Origin: Escherichia coli
Lineage (GTDB): Bacteria; Pseudomonadota; Gammaproteobacteria; Enterobacterales; Enterobacteriaceae
Strand: one strand, 5' to 3'
NCBI RefSeq assembly: GCF_030384885.1
Contig: NZ_CP128613.1
DNA: 64,000 nucleotides
Part shown: in pieces, positions 29,636-54,932 of the stretch
Layout of the letters: each line of letters starts with the position of its first letter
Position numbering within the stretch: the first letter of the stretch is position 1
Made by a program: the position numbers and the translations under genes
Notes under the pieces: model-generated
Database searches by the model: none
Seen by the model: the letters and a program-made list of their open reading frames with translations, nothing else
Told to the model about the DNA's origin: nothing

Positions 29636-31276
29636 TCACGCTGTTGCGAAACTAACAGACTCACCAGCTCCGCGTGGTTCTGCCAACACAGAATGTTTGT
29701 TCAGGCGGAAAACGTCTACCGCCTCAGTTAATCGTGCAGCCTGTTCTTCAAGGGATAGCGCCGCCGCAGAAGCCTCTTCTACCAGAGAAGCATTCTGTTG
29801 CGTCACCTTATCCATTTCGGAAATCGCCTGGCTCACCTGCGTTATGCCTCTACTTTGTTCATCCGAGGCGGCGGCAATCTCCTGCATGATATGTGTGACA
29901 CTCGCGACGGCATCAACAATCGTGCTCATGGTTTTCCCTGCCGTTGCCACTTCAACCGACCCCAGGTCAATTAACCTGACTGATTCACTGATCAAGCCTT
30001 CAATCTCTTTCGCCGCCTGGGCGCTGCGACTTGCGAGTGTCCGTACTTCGCTGGCGACAACGGCAAATCCACGTCCTTGCTCACCCGCTCGCGCGGCTTC
30101 AACGGCAGCATTCAGCGCCAGAATATTTGTCTGGAAAGCAATGCTGTTGATGACGGCAGTGATCTCGGAAATTTTCTTTGAACTCGTGGAGATTGCGCCC
30201 ATCGTTCTAACTACACCGGAAACCGTCTCCCCGCCATCGCTGGCTTTAATGGAGGCCTCTTGCGCCAGTTTGCTGGCATGATGCGCGTTATCCGCATTCT
30301 GTTTCACCGTCGCAGTGAGTTGCTCCATGCTAGCGGCAGTTTGTTCGATTGCCGCCGCTTGTTCTTCGGTGCGAGATGAAAGGTCCGCATTGCCAGCGGA
30401 AATTTCGCTGGTGCCACGATAAATCTCTTCCGTGCCCTGTCGAACGGTCCCTACTGTCATCCCCAGTGAATGCTGCATTTGCTGTAAATGACGACTTAAG
30501 CGACCGATTTCATTACGACCTGCCGGATCATCATTCATCGTCAGATCGCCACTGGCGATTTTTTCAATCCGTTGTGCGGCATGTTGCAATGGACGAATGA
30601 CGATCCGACGTAGCACCATAAATGTTATCAGCGTCATGACCACGGCAAGCACAAACGCGCCAATCATAAACATCACACCCAGGCGGGTACGCTGATGGGC
30701 CTGTTCCGCCAATTGGTTGGCTCTGGTGCTACGTATCTTAACGGCTTTGTTCAAAATATCGGTATAAGCATTATCCAGCGGTCGGATCTGCTCACTTTCA
30801 TGATTAATAATCGCTTCAAACATGCCATTTTTGGCATATTTCAACATAGGTTGCATACCCGTGATATAAGCCTGAAAGCGTTGATTTAATTCAGTGTCGA
30901 GGGCTTCATCAGCAGGTGTTTTCACCGGCCGACTCCGGTAAGCCCGATAACCTTGCTGCGACTGTTTAATCTCCGATTCGGCTTGCGCAATATTTCGCTT
31001 CATTGCTTCCATTTCCGCAATACGACTCGCCGCCCCGGCCTGAATCATATTGATCCGGGCCGAACGCAAAAAATCTGAGCTGTTCGCTAACCCGGTCCGA
31101 ATCTCAATCTCCGCAGTCACATCACGCTGATCGCGATCGGCCTGCCAGAGGAAATAGCCAGCCAGGGCTGAACTCAAGGCAAACAGAAGTAAGATACCGC
31201 CAAGAATGCAGGCAAATAACGGAACCAGCCTGATGTGATGCAAAAAACCTAATCGCTGTGAGGGAGTTGTATTCAT
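29636..31276 (-). CDS. trg: Methyl-accepting chemotaxis protein III (ribose/galactose sensor)
   Basis: 546-aa ORF with two TM segments, HAMP and the conserved MCP signalling domain with methylation-site heptads. Confidence 0.92.
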
Positions 31277-31315
31277 TACCGTTGTCTCTCTTCCAGGTTT
31301 ACTCCTGATAGAAAG

Positions 31316-31342
31316 TCATCGGCATTTGACGGTAATTACTTA
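31316..31342 (-). promoter_or_regulatory. Candidate sigma-28 (FliA) promoter for trg
   Basis: Minus strand reads TAAGTAAT-N11-GCCGATGA against the class III flagellar consensus TAAAGTTT-N11-GCCGATAA, about 40 nt upstream of the trg start. Confidence 0.4.
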
Positions 31343-31558
31343 CGACTAAAAACCTCTTTGCGTCACATTTTTACAACAATTATTGCAGAGAAGATTAATG
31401 CCATTGGATTGAAGAAAGTGAGGAATGGTTAAACTGGCTAACCCGAATGACGAAAAATTCTGGAAAACAGCACGCTATTTCGTGAAGTGATTATTTTCGT
31501 CCCTAAGGAAACCTCATAGGATGCCTGCGGGTGCCCTTACTGCCCCCCTTTTTACGCT

Positions 31559-31732
31559 TCAGTTAGTGCATATTTTTTTCGATGCACTAATAGAACCATC
31601 ATTACAGACAAATTTGCCGCCTGCTGTACAGTGAGAGATCCCCCCTTTCGAACCAGAGCAGGGTTTGCGCCCGGCATCGGCATAAAAGGAAACAAGCGCT
31701 CCCATAACCAAGATAAGTGCCAATTTTTTCAT
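31559..31732 (-). CDS. ydcA: 57-aa secreted cysteine-containing small protein YdcA
   Basis: Not in ORF track. ATG at 31732; [57 protein letters not shown] then TGA; signal peptide plus 4 Cys. Confidence 0.7.
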
Positions 31733-31976: not shown

Positions 31977-32507
31977 TCAGGAACGTTTACGCGGCATCAT
32001 GCGTAGAAGTGTGTTGTCCTTCCAGAAATAGTGGTGTGCCAGTGCAGCCGCAGCGTGCAACCCGATGACAAAATATCCCAGATTCGCCAGCGTCTCATGC
32101 CACCACTTTAAGCTATCAACCCGTTCGAAATTGGCCTCTGCTGCATAAGGCATTGTCATACCAAACGCAAACCACGGGTTGCCCCGGTTATACATCATCA
32201 CCAAACCAATCACTGGCAGCGCAATAAACAGGAGATAAATCACCAAATGTCCCAAATGTGCCAGTCCCGTCATCATCGGTTTTGGTTTAGGTACAATCGG
32301 CGGAGTTGGGTATTTAAGCCTTAACAAAAGACGAACAACCATCAGCACGAGAATTGTGATGCCACAGGAAACATGAATCATGTTGATGAGCGGCCGATCG
32401 CTACGTGGGAAGAAACCACGAAACTCCATTGCGCAATACGCTGCGATAACCAGCAAAAAGACCAGCCAGTGAATGCCGATTTGTAACCTTGAATATTTAC
32501 TTTCCAT
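31977..32507 (-). CDS. cybB: Cytochrome b561
   Basis: ORF 31977-32543; start MESKYSRLQIGIHWLVFLL gives 176 aa; four TM helices with conserved His haem ligands. Confidence 0.9.
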   Translation of the reverse strand: MESKYSRLQIGIHWLVFLLVIAAYCAMEFRGFFPRSDRPLINMIHVSCGITILVLMVVRLLLRLKYPTPPIVPKPKPMMTGLAHLGHLVIYLLFIALPVIGLVMMYNRGNPWFAFGMTMPYAAEANFERVDSLKWWHETLANLGYFVIGLHAAAALAHHYFWKDNTLLRMMPRKRS

Positions 32508-32695
32508 AACATTTCCTGCTTTAACATAATTTTCCGTTAACATAACGAGCTTTTCTTAAAATTTCATTAAATATTGTTCACCCGTTTTCAGTACGTTACG
32601 TTTCACGGCAAGAATGTAGATTGCCCATCCCGCCATCCTGGTCTAAGCCTGGAAAGGATCAATTTTCATCCGAACGTTCCTGACAGGAGAAGACC

Positions 32696-33697
32696 ATGAG
32701 TAAAGTTGGTATTAACGGTTTTGGTCGTATCGGTCGACTGGTGTTGCGTCGATTACTTGAAGTCAAAAGCAACATAGACATTGTCGCTATTAATGATCTC
32801 ACTTCCCCAAAAATTCTCGCCTACCTGCTGAAACATGATTCAAACTACGGACCGTTCCCCTGGAGCGTTGATTTTACGGAAGATTCACTTATCGTTGATG
32901 GAAAAAGTATCGCGGTTTACGCCGAAAAAGAGGCTAAAAATATTCCATGGAAAGCGAAAGGCGCAGAAATCATTGTCGAATGTACTGGCTTTTATACCTC
33001 CGCCGAGAAATCGCAGGCGCACCTTGATGCTGGTGCGAAGAAGGTGTTGATTTCCGCCCCTGCCGGTGAAATGAAAACCATCGTTTATAACGTCAATGAC
33101 GACACACTGGATGGCAACGACACCATTGTTTCCGTGGCGTCATGCACCACTAACTGTCTTGCACCGATGGCCAAAGCCTTGCACGACAGTTTCGGAATAG
33201 AAGTCGGCACGATGACGACCATTCATGCCTATACTGGCACCCAGTCACTGGTGGATGGCCCGCGAGGTAAAGATCTACGCGCTTCACGTGCAGCGGCAGA
33301 AAATATCATTCCCCACACTACAGGCGCGGCAAAAGCCATTGGTCTGGTGATCCCAGAACTGAGCGGCAAACTGAAAGGTCATGCGCAACGCGTACCCGTG
33401 AAAACAGGTTCGGTGACTGAACTGGTGTCTATTCTTGGAAAAAAAGTGACTGCCGAAGAGGTGAACAACGCGCTTAAAAACGCGACAAACAATAACGAGT
33501 CATTTGGTTATACCGATGAAGAAATAGTCTCTTCTGATATCATTGGCAGCCATTTCGGGTCGGTGTTTGATGCCACGCAAACCGAAATTACCGCCGTGGG
33601 CGATTTACAACTGGTGAAAACGGTCGCCTGGTATGATAACGAATATGGCTTCGTCACGCAGCTTATTCGCACCCTCGAAAAATTCGCTAAACTCTGA
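32696..33697 (+). CDS. gapC: Glyceraldehyde-3-phosphate dehydrogenase GapC, intact 333-aa reading frame
   Basis: N-terminal NAD-binding motif INGFGRIGR and active site SCTTNCLAP; uninterrupted ORF. Confidence 0.9.
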
Positions 33698-33703
33698 CGA
33701 GCA

Positions 33704-33735
33704 AAGGCGGAGGGAAAAGCCTCCGCCTCTTTCAC
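33704..33735. terminator. Bidirectional terminator between convergent gapC and aldA
   Basis: ggcggagg-gaaaagc-ctccgcc hairpin followed by tctttcactc. Confidence 0.6.
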
Positions 33736-33738
33736 TCA

Positions 33739-35178
33739 TTACGACTGTAAATAAACCACCTGGGTCTGCAGGTATTCATGCAAGCCATGTTTGCCATCTG
33801 CGCCGCCAATACCGGATTTACGCCATCCGGCGTGGAATCCTTGCATAGCTTCGAAGTTTTCACGGTTGATGTAAGTTTCACCAAACTTCAGCCCTTTAAT
33901 AGCTTTCATCGCGACGTTCAGATTTTGGGTATAGAGTGATGAGGTCAGGCCGTAATCACTGTCATTAGCCATTGCGATAGCCTCTTCCAGCGTGTCAAAT
34001 GCGACCACTGGCAGCACCGGGCCAAAGGTTTCCTCGTGCATAATCGACATTTCCTGACGAACATCCAGCAGCAAAGTCGGCGGATAATAATATCCTTTCC
34101 CCTCAACCGCTTTGCCCCCCAACGCTACCCTCGCCCCCTCTTCGACTGCGCGCGCCACTTTTTGCTCGACCCTTTCCAGCGCCGCGGCGTTAATCAACGG
34201 CCCCATCGCAATGTCGTTGCGTTCAGCGGGGTTACCAAATTGAACCGCCTGCATCGCTTCACCCAGCCGATTGACGAACTGATCATAAATGCCTTTCTGT
34301 ACATAAACACGTTCTGCACAGTTACACACTTGCCCACTATTAATGACGCGTGAATCAACGATGGCTTTGACTGCCAGTTCAAGATCGGCATCGTCCATTA
34401 CGATAGCTGGTGCTTTACCACCCAATTCCAGACACACTTTTGTGATATTTTTTGCTGCAGTCGCCATGATCTTTTCACCTGCAGAGACGCTGCCTGTCAT
34501 ACTGACCATTGCGACCTTTGGGTTACCCGCCAGTTCTTGCCCAACGGTTTCACCACGCCCCAGCACAAGGTTAAACACACCGCGTGGAAGGCCTATTTCA
34601 TCGACAATTTTGGCAAAAGCAATCGCATTGTTTGGCGTAAATTCACTGGGTTTAATGACGATGGTATTACCGGTCAAAAGAGCGGGAGCCATTTTGCGGG
34701 CAATGAGGAAGAACGGGAAGTTCCACGGCAGAATGCCGGTAGTCACGCCAAGCGCACGTTTAAAGAGAAGAATATTTTCTCCTGGACGATCGCTTTGAAT
34801 AATCTCACCTTCGTAACGCCGCGCCCACTCTGCCATGTAATCGATATAATCCGCAGTAAATGCCACCTCAACTTCGGCCAGCTGCTGGATCTTGCCCCCT
34901 TCTTCAACAATCAGCGCACTGATTTCACTGGCGCGTTCGCGGATCCCGGCGGCGATTTTGCGCAACCAACTGGCGCGTTCAATGGCAGGCAATGCTTCCC
35001 ATTCTGGCTGCGCGCGCTCTGCGGCGTCGATTGCTTTGCGAGCATCTTCAGCCTGACCATCGGGAATGCGGGAAATCACCGCCTCTGTTGCGGGGTTAAC
35101 CACATCAATCCATGCGTCTCCACGCCAGGTAACAAACTGTCCATCGATATACATAGGATGTTGAACGGGTACTGACAT
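33739..35178 (-). CDS. aldA: Lactaldehyde dehydrogenase AldA
   Basis: 479-aa aldehyde dehydrogenase; N-terminus MSVPVQHPMYIDGQFVTWRGDAWIDVVNPATEAVISRIPDGQAED. Confidence 0.92.
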   Translation of the reverse strand: MSVPVQHPMYIDGQFVTWRGDAWIDVVNPATEAVISRIPDGQAEDARKAIDAAERAQPEWEALPAIERASWLRKIAAGIRERASEISALIVEEGGKIQQLAEVEVAFTADYIDYMAEWARRYEGEIIQSDRPGENILLFKRALGVTTGILPWNFPFFLIARKMAPALLTGNTIVIKPSEFTPNNAIAFAKIVDEIGLPRGVFNLVLGRGETVGQELAGNPKVAMVSMTGSVSAGEKIMATAAKNITKVCLELGGKAPAIVMDDADLELAVKAIVDSRVINSGQVCNCAERVYVQKGIYDQFVNRLGEAMQAVQFGNPAERNDIAMGPLINAAALERVEQKVARAVEEGARVALGGKAVEGKGYYYPPTLLLDVRQEMSIMHEETFGPVLPVVAFDTLEEAIAMANDSDYGLTSSLYTQNLNVAMKAIKGLKFGETYINRENFEAMQGFHAGWRKSGIGGADGKHGLHEYLQTQVVYLQS

Positions 35179-35371
35179 GGGAGACTCCTGTGATTAATGT
35201 GTGTATTTGGTAAATTATTTGTTAATTAATATCAATCATCATAGAGACAGCATCTTGAAAGGACAAATCTGTGAAGAGCTTCATAAAAAGAAGGGTAAAA
35301 GGAATAAAAGGCAGAAAAAAAAGTAAGGAGTCATGCCCGTTTGCAAACAGTTATTCTCAAACGGGCAATTT

Positions 35372-36443: not shown

Positions 36444-39400
36444 TTAACCGCTAATCTGCTCCATCGCCTGTAGAATACGCTTATCTGAAATCGGATAAGG
36501 TGTACCGAGTTGTTGGGCAAAATAGCTGACGCGCAACTCCTCTATCATCCAGCGTATCTCTTTCACGTCTTCATCCTCACGACGTGCAGGCGGCAGTTTG
36601 TTGATCCATTGCTGCCACGCCTGCTGGACGTTTTCAACTTTCAGCATCTGAGCACGGTCACGGTGCGGGTCAACCGCCAGTTTTTCCAGACGCTTTTCAA
36701 TCGCCTGCAAATAACGCAGCGTGTCGCCCAGGCGTTTGAAGCCATTACCAGTGACAAAACCGCGATACACCAGCCCACTCATCTGCGCTTTAATGTCAGA
36801 AAGCCCCAGCGCCATGGTCATATCCACCCGCCCTTTCAGGCGTTTGTTGATATTGAACACCGCCGTAAGGATTTGCTCTACCTGCTTCGCAATATCCACC
36901 ACCGTGTCGTTCAGTTCAGCGCGGACTTTTTCATGAAGCGCAGCAAAGCCCTCTTCCGTCCAGACCGGGCCGCCCGCCTCATCAATCAACTTATCAACAC
37001 CGCAGGAGATGCAGTCGTCAATGAGATCCAGCACTTTACCGTACGGGTTAAAGTAGAGACCAAGCTTCGCTTTGTTCGGCAGTTTCTCATGCAGATATTT
37101 AATTGGCGACGGAATATTCAGCAGCAGCAAGCGACGCAAACCACGCCACATAGCCTGCTGTTGTTCCTGCGGGTTATCAAAAAGCTTAATCGCTACGCTG
37201 TCACGCTCATCCACCAGCGCAGGCCAGGCCTTCACTTTGTAGTTGCCACGTTTCTGCTCGTAGTGATCCGGTAAATTACCGAAGCTCCAGATATGTAACC
37301 CGCTTTGCTCAATACCATCATCGGCAACGGCGGAAAGCGTTTCCTGCACTTTGCCTTTCAGGGCGTCTTTCAGATCCTGTAATGAGCGCCCTTCTTTTAG
37401 CTTCTTATTTTTGTCATCCACCACACGGAAGGTGATTTTCAGGTGATCGGGCACCTGATCCCAGTGCCAGTCTTCGCGGTCAACGGTAACGCCGGTCATC
37501 CGCCGTAGCTCGCGCTCAAGGCTGTCGAGCAACGGCAGTTCCAGCGGCGTGACGCGACCTAAAAACGCTTCGGCGTAGTTTGGCGCGGGCACAAAATTAC
37601 GCCGTACCGGTTTCGGCAACGATTTGATTAGAGCAATCACCAGTTCACGGCGCAGGCCGGGGATCTGCCACTCAAACCCGCTTTCCTCAACCTGGTTAAG
37701 TAATGGCAGCGGAATATGCACGGTCACACCGTCAGCATCCGCCCCCGGCTCAAACTGATAGCTTAAACGCAGCTTGAGATTGCCCTGATGCCAGAAGTTC
37801 GGGTAATCCAGCTTGCTGATTTTTTCCGCCCCTTCTTTGATCAACATGCTCTTTTCAAAGTTGAGCAAATCAGGTGTTTCGCGGCTGACTTTTTTCCACC
37901 AACTATCAAAGTGACGTGCAGAGATCACATCATGGCTGATGCGCTGGTCGTAAAACTCAAACAACGTTTCGTCATCCACCAGAATATCGCGGCGACGTGA
38001 TTTGTGTTCCAGTTCTTCCACTTCTGCCCGTAGTTTCAGGTTTTCACGGAAGAATGCGTGACGCGTCTGCCAGTCACCTTCCACCAGCGCGTGGCGAATA
38101 AAAAGTTCACGACACAGCGCCGGATCAATCTGGCTGTAGTTGACCTTACGCGCAGCAACAATCGGCAACCCGTAAACGGTGACTTTTTCAGTTGCCATCA
38201 CCGCGCCCTGCGCCCGTTCCCAGTGCGGTTCGCTGTAGGAGCGTTTAATCAAATGCTGGGCAACTGGCTCTACCCATTCTGGATCGATGCGTGCCGCAAT
38301 GCGCCCCCACAGGCGGCTGGTTTCTACCAGTTCCGCCACCATTGCCCATTTCGGCGGCTTCTTGAATAAACCAGAACCGGGGAAGATGGAGAAACGCGCG
38401 TTACGTGCGCCGGTATATTCCTGTTTATCGGCATCTTTCATCCCGATATGCGAAAGCAAACCGGTCAGTAAGGCGATGTGAATTTCGCGATACTCCGCCG
38501 GTTCGCTGTTAACCGGAATGCCAAGTTCTTTCACCACCTGGCGCAACTGGGTGTAGATGTCCTGCCATTCGCGCACGCGCAGATAGTTAAGGTAATCGGT
38601 ACGGCAAAGGCGACGGAAGGCGTTTGAAGAGAGCGCCTTTTGCTGCTCGCCGAGATAATTCCACAGATTTACAAACGCCAGGAAGTCGGATTCTTTATCG
38701 TGGAAGCGACGATGTTTTTCGTCCGATGCCTGCTGCTTGTCCATTGGCCGCTCACGCGGGTCCTGAATAGAGAGCGCGGAAGTGATAATCATCGCCTCAC
38801 GCACGCAGCCATGTTTCTGCGCTTCCAGCACCATTCGCGCCAGACGAGGATCGACTGGCAGTTGCGAGAGCTGGCGACCGAGCGGCGTCAGTTTATAGGC
38901 GCTGGCCTGTTCATCAGTGGTGATCGCGCCCAGCTCTTCGAGCAGACGCACGCCATCCTGGATATTGCGTTTATCCGGCGCTTCTACAAACGGGAACGCA
39001 GCGATATCGCCCAGCCCCAGCGCGGTCATCTGCAAAATAACCGAGGCCAGGTTGGTACGCAGAATCTCCGGATCGGTAAACTCCGGGCGCGAGAGGAAAT
39101 CGTCTTCGGAATAAAGACGAATGCAGATCCCTTCTGACACACGACCACAGCGGCCTTTACGCTGATTAGCTGAAGCCTGCGAAATGGGCTCAATCGGCAA
39201 ACGCTGCACTTTGGTGCGATAGCTGTAGCGGCTGATACGCGCCGTACCTGGGTCGATAACGTATTTAATCCCCGGCACGGTCAGCGACGTTTCCGCGACG
39301 TTAGTCGCCAGCACAATGCGCCGTCCGCTGTGCGACTGGAAGACGCGGTTCTGCTCGCTGTTCGAAAGCCGTGCATAAAGCGGAAGAATTTCCGTATGGC

Positions 39401-49394: not shown

Positions 49395-52300
49395 TTAGAA
49401 CGTTTTCTTGAAGTTCAGCATCACACCTTTATCGCTGATACCATCCTCTTTCCAGTGGTAAGCATCCAGATTCAGCGAGCTCTCTTTGCTGCTGTACTTC
49501 ACGCCGACGCTTGCCAGGCTGTTGATACCGCCGCCCTTTTGCCCATCATCGACATTAAAGTGCTGGCTGCCTGCGCCTGCCAGGCTTGCCGTGCGCTGGC
49601 TCTTCGTGTAGCTCAGGTTTGGCCCACCTTCCAGCGTGGCGTTCGCACTCCAGCCGTCTTTGCCTGCGTAGTCCAGCTTCAGCCCAACGATGCTGTCCAC
49701 CGCCGTTTCGCTGCCGCTGTTCATACTCAGGTTAAAGTCTCCGGCATTACGCTCCTGATAACCGCCTTCCAGCGTGTGACGCAGTTTCACACTCGCATAT
49801 GGCGTGATTTTCAGCCCTTCGCGCGGTTCAAAGGTTTTCGCCCCTTCGCTGCGGAACTCCAGGTACTGCTGTTTCACATTCGTGTCTGCCGTCTTACTGA
49901 TGTCGCCGTAAGCCACCGAACGGCTGCTGTCCAGTTGGTGGATATCGTAACGCAGCGCGTTATTCCAGCTCATACCGTTGTCAAAGGACATCTGATGCTT
50001 CAGGCCAAAGAACTGGCTGTAGCCGCCTGTAACACCGTTATCACCCGCTTTCTGCGCACCGTCGCCGTCCAGACGGGCGATACCGTACTCCAGGCTCATG
50101 GTCTGGTTTTCGCTCAGGTCGAGGGTTTTGCGCAGCGCCAGCATGTCGTACTCGGTATTATTCCCCAGCTCTGCACGCGGATCGCCTTTCGCCACCACGT
50201 TAAATGCCAGACCGTTGCCCATCTTCGGTGCGGCGTCTGCCAGCATACTAAAGCGATTGCTTAACACACGCGCTTCGCGGAATACCGTGGTCGCCTGGCT
50301 ACCGCTAATTTGCTTAAGTGCGCTGTTCAGCTCTGCAGTGGTGCCGACGTTCAGACTGGTATACAGCTCATTGTTGGTGTAACCCGCATCCAGCGCTTTT
50401 GCCACGTCATTCACTGAGGCATCCGTCGCCACATCGGTGTAGGCTTTTTTGCTCATGGTCACGTCAACGTTGCCGCTGGCGTCGGTACTGCCTGTCGCCT
50501 GCCAGACAACAGATGTCGAAGTGATCGCTTGCGCATCGGTCAGGTTGCTGCCTTGCACCACATCATCAAAGCTGACGGTTTTGTCCACCGTTCCCGCCGC
50601 AAAAGCGGTGTTGATCTCCACGCCATTCATACTGGCGTTATTGACCATCAGCTTACCGGCGCTACCGTCGGCGTTCGTCCCCACCACGTAACCATTGAGG
50701 TTGTTCATGCCATCGTTGCGGCTAACGGAAGAAGAATGGCTGCCGTCGTATGGCGTAATGGTGGGTTCTTCCGGCGCGGTAAAGTCGACATAGTGTACTT
50801 CCGTACCGTCTCCCCCTTCGCCACTGCCCTCTATCGGCGTGCCAGATTGTTTAATCAATCCGGAACCATTCACGTTGTCGTCAATATAAACAGTGCCGTT
50901 GTTAACAATATGACCATTGCTCCCGAGCTTGCTGAAGGCGAAGGAGTTATTGGCGTAGATATTAATCGTACCGTTGTTTTCAACCACACCATCCGCTTTG
51001 GCGTCCGATGCTAATTGCATCCCAATCATGCCTGTTTGTGTCGTGCCTTCGCTGCCGACATTGATGGTGCCATTGTTAACCATTTTTGCGCTGCCGTGCG
51101 CATTCATGGCGATGGTATTATTTTTATCAATATTGATAGTGCCATCGTTAATTGCCCGGCTACCGGCGTTATTATTTGACGTCGTAACCTGGCCGTTAAT
51201 CACACCTGTCGTACCGTTATACAATGTATGCCCATTACCGCCGGTAGCGATATCAGCATCCCCATTCACTGTACCCCAGTTGTTGAAATGCCCAGCCCAA
51301 AGTCCGTTATCAAGAAGATCGACAACACCACCGTCCAGGTTATTGAAGGTCGCGTTTTTATCAACCGAACCACTATGAACCGTTCCTGCGTTATTGAATG
51401 TGGCTGCGGCAGAAAAATTCACTTTATTGACCGTTCCACCCGCTTCGTTATTCATCACGGCAGAAGCAGAGGCTCCCTTCCATGCTGTTACCGTCCCGGC
51501 GTTATAAAACGTACTGGCCCATTGTTCAACAGTGTTGATAGTGCCGGAGTTGTTGATAACAGAACCCGCAACGGTTGTACCTACTTGCCCGGTCACTACA
51601 CCTTCGTTAGTAAACACGCCGCCATCCACAGAAACGGTTTTTGTCGTGCCCTGGTTGGTGTATTCCCCACCCGTTGCAATATCAACCTCGTTTATACTGC
51701 CCGTGGTTTCATTGACCAGATGACCAAAGTCAGCCACGGTGACAGGCCCTCCGGTTACGGTACCCGCGTTGGTTACCAGGGTTTCAGCGGTCGCTATCAT
51801 ATCAGTAGAACCACCGGATGAAGACAGGTTAAGCGTCTCCCCCTCGGCCGTAATGATATCGCCGTTTCTCCAGCTTAATGAAACGAACCCATCAGTCGGG
51901 TTATAGGCGTTACTGTCCTGGCATATACCAAAAGTACAGATGGTTCCGTAATTAACGATAGTCCCGCTGCCATCGTTATAGAATGCCTGCCCGTTTTCAG
52001 CATTGATATTGATGATGCCCGTCTGGTCATTAACTGCGGTACCGCCACTATAAACTGCCATACCAACGAGTTTATTCGCCCCCAGGCTGCCATCAAAGTT
52101 CTCATTCTTCTCGAGGTTGATGGTACCCTGATTAACCACCGTATTATCGGTACCGTATGCTGCCATCCCAGCACCTGCATTATAGATAGTGATAGTACCT
52201 GACTGCTGGTTAAGCGCGGTAGCATTTTGCCTTGCGCCACCATAACTGTCCGTTCCTACCGCCATGCCGACACCATAATTTTTTGCATTGCTGCTGCCGA

Positions 52301-54932
52301 TATCGTTGCGTAAGGTGGTGGTATCGTTTTCATCTACCCAGATCGTATCCAGGGTAATCTGGCCTGCATTTGTTACAGTCGAATGATTAATCGCCAGCAT
52401 ACCGACATTACCCCGGCCATACATATCAATAACGCCATTCGCACCATTTAGCGCTGAACCATTATCCTGAGCAGTCATGCCCGTCATACTAACAACGCCA
52501 CTATTAAAAACCGTGGGATCGCTCAATGACAAAGCATTGAACATATTCAAAACGCTATACTGTTCCATCACTTTAGCCGTAATGGTACCGTTATTCACCG
52601 CCGTCCCACCTTCGGAGCTAAAGAAGGCTTTATTACCGGATTCCGGCGATACATCAATTGCGGATGAGTAATCATATTGCTCAAGTAAAACATTACCGTT
52701 ATTCGTTGCAACGGAACCCGTACCCGATATATTGGTAAACCCCATATTCCAGAGCTCAACAAACCCGTTATTGATAACTTGTGACCCTGAACTGACGCTA
52801 AGTATTTCTGATGGGTTATTGCCATAATGCGCGTAAACGTCAATATCCTTCATACTGAAGGTCGCATCCTCCGTGATTTCAAGAAAAGCATTATTGCTTA
52901 CCTGAATAATATTTGCATAGCCCAGCGGAAATTGACCGCTGACTGAGGAGTCTCCTCCCAGATAAACCGACGAATGACCATCAACCTTAATGAGCGGAAT
53001 ATCACCATAGCCCGTACGACTTGCGGCTGGGACTGAACCATCCGTCATAGCCGATGCTTCACCGAAAAGTTGAATACCCCCCCGTAAGGTAACGCTATTT
53101 TCATCCCCTGAAATCACCAACCCACTGATGTTTTCTTGGCTACCATTGACAGTACTATAGGTGTGATGCGCAAGTTCGCTATCAACCTTCAATGTTAACT
53201 GACCATCCAGCGTCAGGTCATTATTGTTACCCGAAACACGAATACCTACGGAAGAATCGAAAAAGTGTTCTGCTGCATTATCAGTCGTCTGATCTTTATC
53301 CACCATAATATTACCGGTAATTTCAACTTCATTGCCATCACCGGCCACATTTACCCCTGTAGCAACACTGCCAGTCACATTAAGCTCATTCGTTGCCAGC
53401 GTCATGGTGTTATTATTTCCAGACACATCCAGACCGGTTGAATAATCCCCAACATCCATACGGCCAGCCAGAGAAATTTCGCCCCCATCTCCAACAACGC
53501 GAATCCCGGTACTGGCATTTCTGGCAGTGATATCCCCCACATTGATAAGAGTAGAATGATTACCCTCAATCAGAATCCCTGTCGCATTGGCCTCTGAACT
53601 ACCATTACTGACGGAAATATCCCCCCTGTTAATGAACGTCGACGCATCACCACTGAGAGAAACACCCAGCGAATTTTCATCCACGACCGTTATATTGCCT
53701 TTGTTGCTGACGATCGCGCCATTACCCTCAACATCAATACCCCGAGCAGCATTGCTAACGTATAAATCCCCTTCCTGTATAACCGTCGCATTATTACCAA
53801 CGATTTTGCTGCCCGTTGAATTTTGCCCATCAACCGTCATATGTCCTTTATTATCGGTCCTGACATCATTACCGATAATAAGGGCCCCTGTTCCACCATT
53901 ATTGACGGTGGAGTCGCCAGTGTTATTTAAGATTGTACGATCGCCATTAACGATAACCGCCGTGCCAGCATCGACCACCGTCTGACCGTTATTATTAATG
54001 GTTATATTATCGCCGGTCAGGATACCGACCACCGAATCTTCACCGACAGCCTCTGTTTTACCCTCGTTTGTCAGCGCAATGTTGTCACCATTAATCATCA
54101 TCACTGTACCGCCATTCAGGGCCGTGTTGCCGCCCTGGTCAGTGATAATTGCATCATTAACGGTAATTATTCTGCCCGTTGTTCCATCAGACACGACGCT
54201 GGCTAACTGTGTGACGTGGAGTTTACCTTCGTCATCATAGCGCCATTCCGTATCACCAGTGGTACTCACTCCACTAAAGATGGCGGTATGAGTCTCTTCA
54301 TGGTTTTCCCACTCAGTCACAATGGTTTTTCGGCCATCTTTTGCCGTCAGCGTGTAGCTACCATCTTCATTTTGGGTATAAGTGAACGTCGCCCCGCGAA
54401 TCTTCAAGGTTTGCGCGTCCTTGTCCCATGTCACATTGTTTTCAAAGACAACGGGTTCTGTTCTCGGGGGGTCAACATCATCATCGCTATTGTCGGGTGG
54501 AGTAACATCACCGCCTTTATCTGGGGGGGTAACATCATCGGCGTTATCTGGCTTTACAGGTATATCTGAATCTTCATCACTGGGAAGGGGTGGCGGTAGA
54601 GAGCCATTATCATCTGGCGGTATGGGCTGGGAAAAAGAAGAGTGAGCAGAATGATCATTGTCATGAGACAATTCAATCACTGCGAGTGTTGCCAGTACCG
54701 CCGTGGCACCTAATGCCAGTAACGAGCTGAAACCATTATTTGTAACAACAGCACATTTTTCTGGCACTGTTTTCAACTTCATTGACGGTCGGGCGTGCCC
54801 TTCTGACTGACATGTCATTTGAGAGCTTCTGCGCATACTGTCTGCACTCTCGCCTTCTGTTATTTCCGCCCCCCAGCTTTGGCCACTTAACGCTATAGCG
54901 ATACACGCTGATAATAACGTTTTCTTTTGCAT
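49395..54932 (-). CDS. ydbA: Autotransporter YdbA, uninterrupted 1845-aa reading frame (beta-helical passenger plus C-terminal beta-barrel translocator)
   Basis: Signal peptide; Pro/Asp-rich N-terminal repeats; long Gly/Asn/Thr-rich degenerate repeats typical of beta-helix passengers; C-terminus ends ...MLNFKKTF (terminal aromatic) as in autotransporter barrels. One continuous ORF, no IS sequences inside. Confidence 0.85.
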   Translation of the reverse strand: MQKKTLLSACIAIALSGQSWGAEITEGESADSMRRSSQMTCQSEGHARPSMKLKTVPEKCAVVTNNGFSSLLALGATAVLATLAVIELSHDNDHSAHSSFSQPIPPDDNGSLPPPLPSDEDSDIPVKPDNADDVTPPDKGGDVTPPDNSDDDVDPPRTEPVVFENNVTWDKDAQTLKIRGATFTYTQNEDGSYTLTAKDGRKTIVTEWENHEETHTAIFSGVSTTGDTEWRYDDEGKLHVTQLASVVSDGTTGRIITVNDAIITDQGGNTALNGGTVMMINGDNIALTNEGKTEAVGEDSVVGILTGDNITINNNGQTVVDAGTAVIVNGDRTILNNTGDSTVNNGGTGALIIGNDVRTDNKGHMTVDGQNSTGSKIVGNNATVIQEGDLYVSNAARGIDVEGNGAIVSNKGNITVVDENSLGVSLSGDASTFINRGDISVSNGSSEANATGILIEGNHSTLINVGDITARNASTGIRVVGDGGEISLAGRMDVGDYSTGLDVSGNNNTMTLATNELNVTGSVATGVNVAGDGNEVEITGNIMVDKDQTTDNAAEHFFDSSVGIRVSGNNNDLTLDGQLTLKVDSELAHHTYSTVNGSQENISGLVISGDENSVTLRGGIQLFGEASAMTDGSVPAASRTGYGDIPLIKVDGHSSVYLGGDSSVSGQFPLGYANIIQVSNNAFLEITEDATFSMKDIDVYAHYGNNPSEILSVSSGSQVINNGFVELWNMGFTNISGTGSVATNNGNVLLEQYDYSSAIDVSPESGNKAFFSSEGGTAVNNGTITAKVMEQYSVLNMFNALSLSDPTVFNSGVVSMTGMTAQDNGSALNGANGVIDMYGRGNVGMLAINHSTVTNAGQITLDTIWVDENDTTTLRNDIGSSNAKNYGVGMAVGTDSYGGARQNATALNQQSGTITIYNAGAGMAAYGTDNTVVNQGTINLEKNENFDGSLGANKLVGMAVYSGGTAVNDQTGIININAENGQAFYNDGSGTIVNYGTICTFGICQDSNAYNPTDGFVSLSWRNGDIITAEGETLNLSSSGGSTDMIATAETLVTNAGTVTGGPVTVADFGHLVNETTGSINEVDIATGGEYTNQGTTKTVSVDGGVFTNEGVVTGQVGTTVAGSVINNSGTINTVEQWASTFYNAGTVTAWKGASASAVMNNEAGGTVNKVNFSAAATFNNAGTVHSGSVDKNATFNNLDGGVVDLLDNGLWAGHFNNWGTVNGDADIATGGNGHTLYNGTTGVINGQVTTSNNNAGSRAINDGTINIDKNNTIAMNAHGSAKMVNNGTINVGSEGTTQTGMIGMQLASDAKADGVVENNGTINIYANNSFAFSKLGSNGHIVNNGTVYIDDNVNGSGLIKQSGTPIEGSGEGGDGTEVHYVDFTAPEEPTITPYDGSHSSSVSRNDGMNNLNGYVVGTNADGSAGKLMVNNASMNGVEINTAFAAGTVDKTVSFDDVVQGSNLTDAQAITSTSVVWQATGSTDASGNVDVTMSKKAYTDVATDASVNDVAKALDAGYTNNELYTSLNVGTTAELNSALKQISGSQATTVFREARVLSNRFSMLADAAPKMGNGLAFNVVAKGDPRAELGNNTEYDMLALRKTLDLSENQTMSLEYGIARLDGDGAQKAGDNGVTGGYSQFFGLKHQMSFDNGMSWNNALRYDIHQLDSSRSVAYGDISKTADTNVKQQYLEFRSEGAKTFEPREGLKITPYASVKLRHTLEGGYQERNAGDFNLSMNSGSETAVDSIVGLKLDYAGKDGWSANATLEGGPNLSYTKSQRTASLAGAGSQHFNVDDGQKGGGINSLASVGVKYSSKESSLNLDAYHWKEDGISDKGVMLNFKKTF

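Follow-up and report, generated by a model that had tools for sequence, protein, structure and literature searches.

The closest described relative of the protein studied here is EcGAPDH1, an E. coli 'type 1 GAPDH' that was purified and crystallised by Zhang et al. (Biomolecules 2021; PMC8615399), with PDB entries 7C5F, 7C5H, 7C5P and 7C7K. According to that paper, the enzyme has NAD-linked activity with a KM of 0.73 mM for glyceraldehyde-3-phosphate (G3P), in assays run at pH 10 and 50 °C, conditions that are not physiological. The C150A mutation abolishes this activity, and H177A lowers it by a factor of about 8000. The paper also describes structures with NAD, phosphate, G3P and the thioacyl intermediate, and names Asp34, R11, I12, K78 and S120 among the NAD+ contacts. 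The name gapC does not occur in the paper; it is by sequence comparison that EcGAPDH1 can be equated with GapC. A second reference protein is GapC of E. coli O157:H7 (UniProt P58072), as cited in PMC10614358, a study in which gapC is the E. coli marker of a urine qPCR assay. The third is GapA (WP_000153502.1), which has the same fold as GapC, the catalytic Cys and His, the same reaction and the same NAD dependence, but shares only 47% identity with it.

We analysed a window of 64,000 nucleotides of E. coli DNA, in which gapC lies at 32696..33697 on the + strand. Both in the ORF list and in the raw sequence it is a single open reading frame of 333 codons plus a stop, which starts with ATG and ends with TGA at 33695-33697; the ORF listing of the window gives 0 internal stops in this frame. 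The initial annotation had described an intact GAPDH of 333 residues with precisely these limits, and on this point it is exact. A Shine-Dalgarno sequence, AGGAG, was read 6 nt 5' of the ATG (32687..32691, + strand) and is invariant in 17 of 17 aligned alleles. The predicted product is identical to WP_000048645.1, and the CDS is found with 100% identity in NZ_CP027579.1, the genome of strain 2013C-4282 (human stool, USA). This genome is 100% identical to the window over positions 20000-44000, the next best genome reaching 98.5%, and its RefSeq entry for the gene reads 'gap: type I glyceraldehyde-3-phosphate dehydrogenase' (WP_000048645.1) and carries no flag as a pseudogene. An intact gapC is already known, by way of RefSeq and UniProt annotation and of a crystallised and assayed product, so that its observation in the window is correct but ordinary.

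The product contains the two Pfam domains of the family, Gp_dh_N (residues 3-102, 122.7 bits) and Gp_dh_C (155-313, 195.8 bits), both above their gathering thresholds. Against the NCBIfam model TIGR01534 ('type I GAPDH') GapC scores 446.2 bits, for a cut-off of 367.2, and the match spans residues 3-325 of 333 and model positions 1-330 of 330. This full-length match at the equivalog level, together with PF00044 and PF02800, places GapC within the type I phosphorylating GAPDHs. The active-site motif SCTTNC is found at residues 149-154 (S149-C150-T-T-N-C154, codons at 33140..33157, + strand), where Cys150 would be the nucleophile, and is completed by His177 (33224..33226, + strand), the catalytic base. 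The GxGxxG signature of the Rossmann domain is provided by GFGRIGR at residues 8-14, and Asp34 (32795..32797, + strand) is the acidic residue that determines the use of NAD+ rather than NADP+. R11, I12, D34, K78, S120, C150, H177, T180, T182 and R232 were all found in a check of individual residues. The SCTTNC motif (from residue 149) and the NAD-binding fold, which had been noticed at first sight of the sequence, are thus both confirmed. On these grounds, the gapC product is predicted to be an NAD-dependent phosphorylating type I GAPDH.

Neighbouring families were also considered. Assignment to the GapA-type housekeeping GAPDHs (PRK15425, NF011954) was rejected, GapC scoring 302.4 bits for a cut-off of 662, with the 47% identity to GapA given above. 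GapC might have a different main job: it could be an erythrose-4-phosphate dehydrogenase (E4PD), a GAPDH of arsenate resistance, a gluconeogenic GAPDH that depends on NADP, or a secreted protein that moonlights as an adhesin. Divergence of a GAPDH paralogue in its substrate has a precedent in E. coli, namely Epd. Secretion of GAPDH by EHEC and EPEC is also on record (Egea et al. 2007, as cited in PMC7062713). We nevertheless regard a different main job as very improbable. The scores with the Epd/GapB models (TIGR01532, 277.4 bits for a cut-off of 530.55; NF010058, 279.9 for 539) and with the model of ArsJ-associated GAPDH (NF033735, 307.3 for 450) are far below the cut-offs, whereas the type I GAPDH model is passed. 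The genes flanking gapC are cybB and aldA, with no arsJ adjacent, and both Asp34 and the NAD-bound crystal structures favour NAD over NADP. Robust activity on G3P was measured for EcGAPDH1 (PMC8615399), and we found nothing that links the secreted enzyme to gapC rather than to gapA.

The comparison with EcGAPDH1 is particularly close. In a PDB search, 330 of the 333 residues were identical over the full length; the residues are numbered alike (Cys150, His177), and every residue of the NAD and phosphate sites that is named in PMC8615399 is conserved. The two proteins differ by three surface-polymorphic substitutions, I29V, N262Q and N265T, all of which are natural polymorphisms among intact gapC alleles. 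The crystallised sequence itself is a natural allele, that of strains H15, Ec-U7 and 102651. GapC would therefore be, like this 99%-identical protein for which the chemistry has been shown, a homotetrameric, NAD+-dependent, phosphorylating type I GAPDH. Cys150 would attack glyceraldehyde-3-phosphate to form a thiohemiacetal; with His177 acting as the base, a hydride would pass to NAD+, and inorganic phosphate would then cleave the thioacyl intermediate to yield 1,3-bisphosphoglycerate. By score, GapC is nearer to enzymes of Gram-positive bacteria, for example S. aureus GAPDH 1 (PDB 3K73, E = 2e-122), and the 60 best PDB matches to GapC included no structure of E. coli GapA. The O157:H7 counterpart is found at the same cybB-gapC-aldA locus. 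The allele of strain MB41-1 is intact and differs from GapC of the window at 4 residues; the nucleotide divergence of the O157 allele from the window is about 4.4%, nearly all of it synonymous.

In the window, gapC is transcribed away from cybB (32507 down to 31977, - strand; cytochrome b561, Pfam Ni_hydr_CYTB), and converges with aldA (33739..35178, - strand; Pfam Aldedh). Beyond cybB lie a 57-aa ORF (31559..31732, - strand) and trg (29636..31276, - strand), and beyond aldA come ydcF and then hrpA. The order cybB-gapC-aldA is the same in 2013C-4282, in a K-12 derivative and in 16 other sampled genomes, and this position, between a divergent cybB and a convergent aldA, is the one expected of the gapC orthologue group. 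As called mechanically, the cybB ORF extends over 31977..32543 (- strand) from an upstream ATG and has 188 aa, versus 176 aa from the RefSeq start at 32507. With the RefSeq start, the true spacer between cybB and gapC is 188 bp long.

Strain 2013C-4282 also encodes gapA (WP_000153502.1, at 693517-694512), and it therefore has two GAPDH genes. The two differ in their conservation: gapA shows at least 99% DNA identity in 5424 of 5425 genomes; for gapC, most values lie at 95-99%. The suggestion made in the initial annotation, that the strain may carry a second functional GAPDH beside GapA, is supported by the intact frame, the catalytic and NAD-binding residues, the activity of an enzyme identical at 330 of 333 positions, the purifying selection described below and the presence of gapA. 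Outside the window, 2013C-4282 has the gene for the type III secretion effector EspL1 between yniD and thrS, which suggests an attaching-and-effacing or STEC-type background.

gapC was reportedly described in K-12 by Hidalgo et al. in 1996 (as cited in PMC10614358). The K-12 gene, the pseudogene gapC_1/gapC_2 (b1417/b1416), occupies the same locus in the same orientation and is 96.2% identical to gapC of the window at the nucleotide level. In the K-12 derivative AML001_ev03 the orthologue is 1001 nt long and is flagged in RefSeq as a pseudogene ('frameshifted; internal stop'). Its alignment with the window shows 38 substitutions and one deletion, among which two changes are disabling. The first, A115T, converts Lys39 from AAA to TAA; this codon, 39 (32808..32810, + strand), is AAA in the window. 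The second is the loss of one base, A7 to A6, in the homopolymer at gene nt 744-750, a -1 frameshift at a site that has its full length in the window (33439..33445, + strand). The K-12 product further differs by R18G. A 72-mer containing the frameshift matches with 100% identity in the record named K-12 substr. MG1655. The statement, made in the initial annotation, that gapC is a pseudogene in K-12 is borne out by the RefSeq flag, by the location of both lesions and by the MG1655 match; the K-12 allele is neither identical to that of the window nor intact.

Compared with the intact allele of Ec-U7, the K-12 allele shows exactly three differences (R18G, K39* and the frameshift). Since only these three lesions separate the two, the K-12 pseudogene must be very young. 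Strain MB30 carries the K-12 stop and lacks the frameshift, which suggests that the stop came first and the frameshift later in this type of allele. In the window strain gapC is not unusually divergent, since all of the surrounding region shares about 95-96% identity with K-12.

To estimate how common the intact gene is, we relied on 18 sampled loci and on exact counts of 72- and 73-mers. Of 5426 complete E. coli genomes, 5417 contain gapC, and in 5409 the match covers at least 80% of the gene with 95-100% identity, as expected of orthologues. The K-12 73-mer with TAA was found exactly in 1152 genomes (21%), and the matching intact 73-mer with AAA in 2908 (54%); the rest carry other SNPs within the 73-mer. 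An exact match to the K-12 A6 72-mer was obtained in 1041 genomes, and among 40 gapC matches spread over the ranks of the list, 7 are 1001 nt long. From these 40, 18 loci were examined. Thirteen translate without interruption, and 12 of those 13 are annotated in RefSeq with long-standing WP_ accessions; four, including that of MB30, have the K-12 stop. In the remaining one (SCPM-O-B-7615), an IS1A element has taken the place of the 3' 80% of gapC and of the 3' end of aldA, which is an independent, insertion-sequence-mediated loss of gapC. We conclude that about three in four complete E. coli genomes have an intact gapC, among them those of Nissle 1917 (EcN), O157:H7 and APEC strains. The window strain is in the majority state, and it is K-12 that is exceptional. 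Although gapC is a core-type gene of the chromosome, five matches fell on records labelled as plasmid; the replicons may have been mislabelled, or may have captured large pieces of chromosome.

Allelic variation was analysed by comparing gapC of the window with 16 other alleles, 17 in total. Pairwise dN/dS between the window allele and the 16 others ranged from 0.00 to 0.07, at dS values of up to 0.18, and of the 86 segregating sites, 70 fall on the third position of a codon. The allele of F5446 has 16 nucleotide differences from that of the window, all synonymous, so that the protein is identical. gapC has thus been under strong long-term purifying selection. This pattern of dN/dS and third-position changes is not that of an unused gene, and implies that GapC has a role in the cell. 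The PSS-04 allele is formally intact and has four private non-synonymous changes (N26K, L44P, A90T and N203I), which may reflect functional decay or assembly errors.

Could gapC instead be a cryptic, unexpressed gene that is drifting towards a pseudogene across E. coli, K-12 being merely the first to have arrived there? Several observations go in this direction: at least two losses are seen, by the K-12-type stop and frameshift (about 21% of genomes) and by the IS1-associated deletion in SCPM-O-B-7615; the PSS-04 allele has its four private changes, including L44P and N203I; and GapA alone is sufficient in K-12. However, dN/dS values of 0.03 to 0.07 at a dS of about 0.15, with 70 of 86 sites at third positions, are incompatible with neutral drift. 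Furthermore, the three lesions that set K-12 apart from Ec-U7 indicate a decay that is recent and local, rather than species-wide. We therefore judge species-wide drift of a cryptic gene to be unlikely, and the data on expression bear on it as well.

Codon bias was measured by the reference-free ENC, which is 54.4 for gapC, a value like those of its neighbours, versus 27.9 for gapA. A bias this weak would fit an unexpressed gene. Taken together with a DNA identity of 95-99%, compared to at least 99% for gapA, it rather points to a gene whose expression is low. The 188-bp divergent region between cybB and gapC (32508..32695) is presumed to contain the gapC promoter; 21 of its 188 columns vary among the 17 alleles. 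A sigma-70 scan upstream of gapC returned a single weak site (32501-32530, 9/12), which does not exceed what chance would give, and the lack of a recognisable sigma-70 promoter is another point in favour of a cryptic gene. By eye, TAGATT (32617-32622) was considered as a -10 element and dropped, because its first base varies among alleles. The segment TCTAAGCC (32642-32649) resembles a σS -10 element but, among the 17 alleles, is without the conserved final T in all except the K-12 derivative. In that derivative, the lab-evolved AML001_ev03, a C to T change at the equivalent of window position 32649, found in this one allele of the 17, gives TCTAAGCTT instead of TCTAAGCC and so a better fit to an extended -10 element of the σS type.

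Published data from K-12, whose own gapC is a pseudogene, point to σS in the transcription of the locus. A ChIP-seq peak of EσS was found in the gapC_1/cybB intergenic region (PMC4447067), and in a glucose-limited chemostat the gapC_1 mRNA was 5.6-fold lower in a ΔrpoS mutant (PMC4512719); the starvation-phase isoenzyme gene fbaB appears in the same table of the latter study. From the peak and the drop in mRNA, we infer that gapC is controlled by σS. In EPEC, gapC mRNA is reported and drops in a ΔcsrA mutant (PMC6333774), so that the gene would be transcribed in a strain named as having gapC. Transcripts are thus known from EPEC, and even from the K-12 pseudogene (PMC4512719), which again argues against a cryptic gene. 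No entry for gapC or gapA was found on searching supplements to a proteome study of O157:H7 and to the EPEC transcriptome study of CsrA. Downstream, where gapC and aldA converge, a GC-rich hairpin, GGCGGAGGG-loop-CCTCCGCC, was found by folding between their two stop codons, at 33705..33728. Its free energy is -20.7 kcal/mol (z = -3.9), and 0 of 200 shuffled sequences fold equally well. It is probably a bidirectional intrinsic terminator for gapC and aldA; a simple terminator scan did not list it.

The reading we prefer, and hold to be highly probable, is that of an intact chromosomal gapC coding for an NAD+-dependent GAPDH, a low-abundance, σS-controlled auxiliary to GapA that is selected in most lineages and was lost recently in K-12. 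GapC would act as an auxiliary isoenzyme beside the housekeeping GapA, and would be transcribed mainly under σS, in starvation or stationary phase, which would put it among other isoenzymes of that phase such as fbaB. Selection would keep the gene in most E. coli lineages; the K-12 pseudogene would be a recent loss in a single lineage, and the window strain would represent the ancestral and common state. K-12 is atypical here, since about three quarters of complete E. coli genomes retain an intact gapC under strong purifying selection, and metabolic models and assumptions on gapA essentiality that are based on K-12 may not transfer exactly to natural or pathogenic isolates.

A stronger version can be put forward, though only tentatively: GapC, encoded next to the cytochrome b561 gene cybB, could have a non-redundant function as a σS-controlled GAPDH of starved or stressed cells, for instance as a backup when the cysteine of GapA is oxidised. 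The strong purifying selection, the binding of σS and the dependence on it in K-12, and the low codon bias are compatible with such a starvation isoenzyme without demonstrating it, and the literature searched held no study that defines the cellular role of GapC. Were it true, selection would be maintaining GapC in most natural E. coli, and decades of K-12 physiology would have missed a real branch of central metabolism.

Other differences from K-12 were seen in the vicinity. Between trg and the 57-aa ORF (window ~31277-31558), about 337 bp of K-12 are missing; in K-12, hokB, which codes for a type I toxin, and a small ORF, yncP, lie in this segment, and no hok gene is annotated at the corresponding position in 2013C-4282. 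The 3' 1.25 kb of hrpA (window ~36444-37700) show 89.8% identity to K-12, compared to about 95-97% for the neighbouring genes, and the aldA-ydcF spacer (35179-35371) shows 88%; these may be recombined or hypervariable segments. Finally, an unbroken ORF of 1845 aa at 49395..54932 (- strand) has the Pfam domains BigA_N and BigA_beta, and is of the YdbA/BigA autotransporter type. In K-12, ydbA is presumably a pseudogene interrupted by an IS, and this ORF would then be a second gene that is intact here and broken in K-12.
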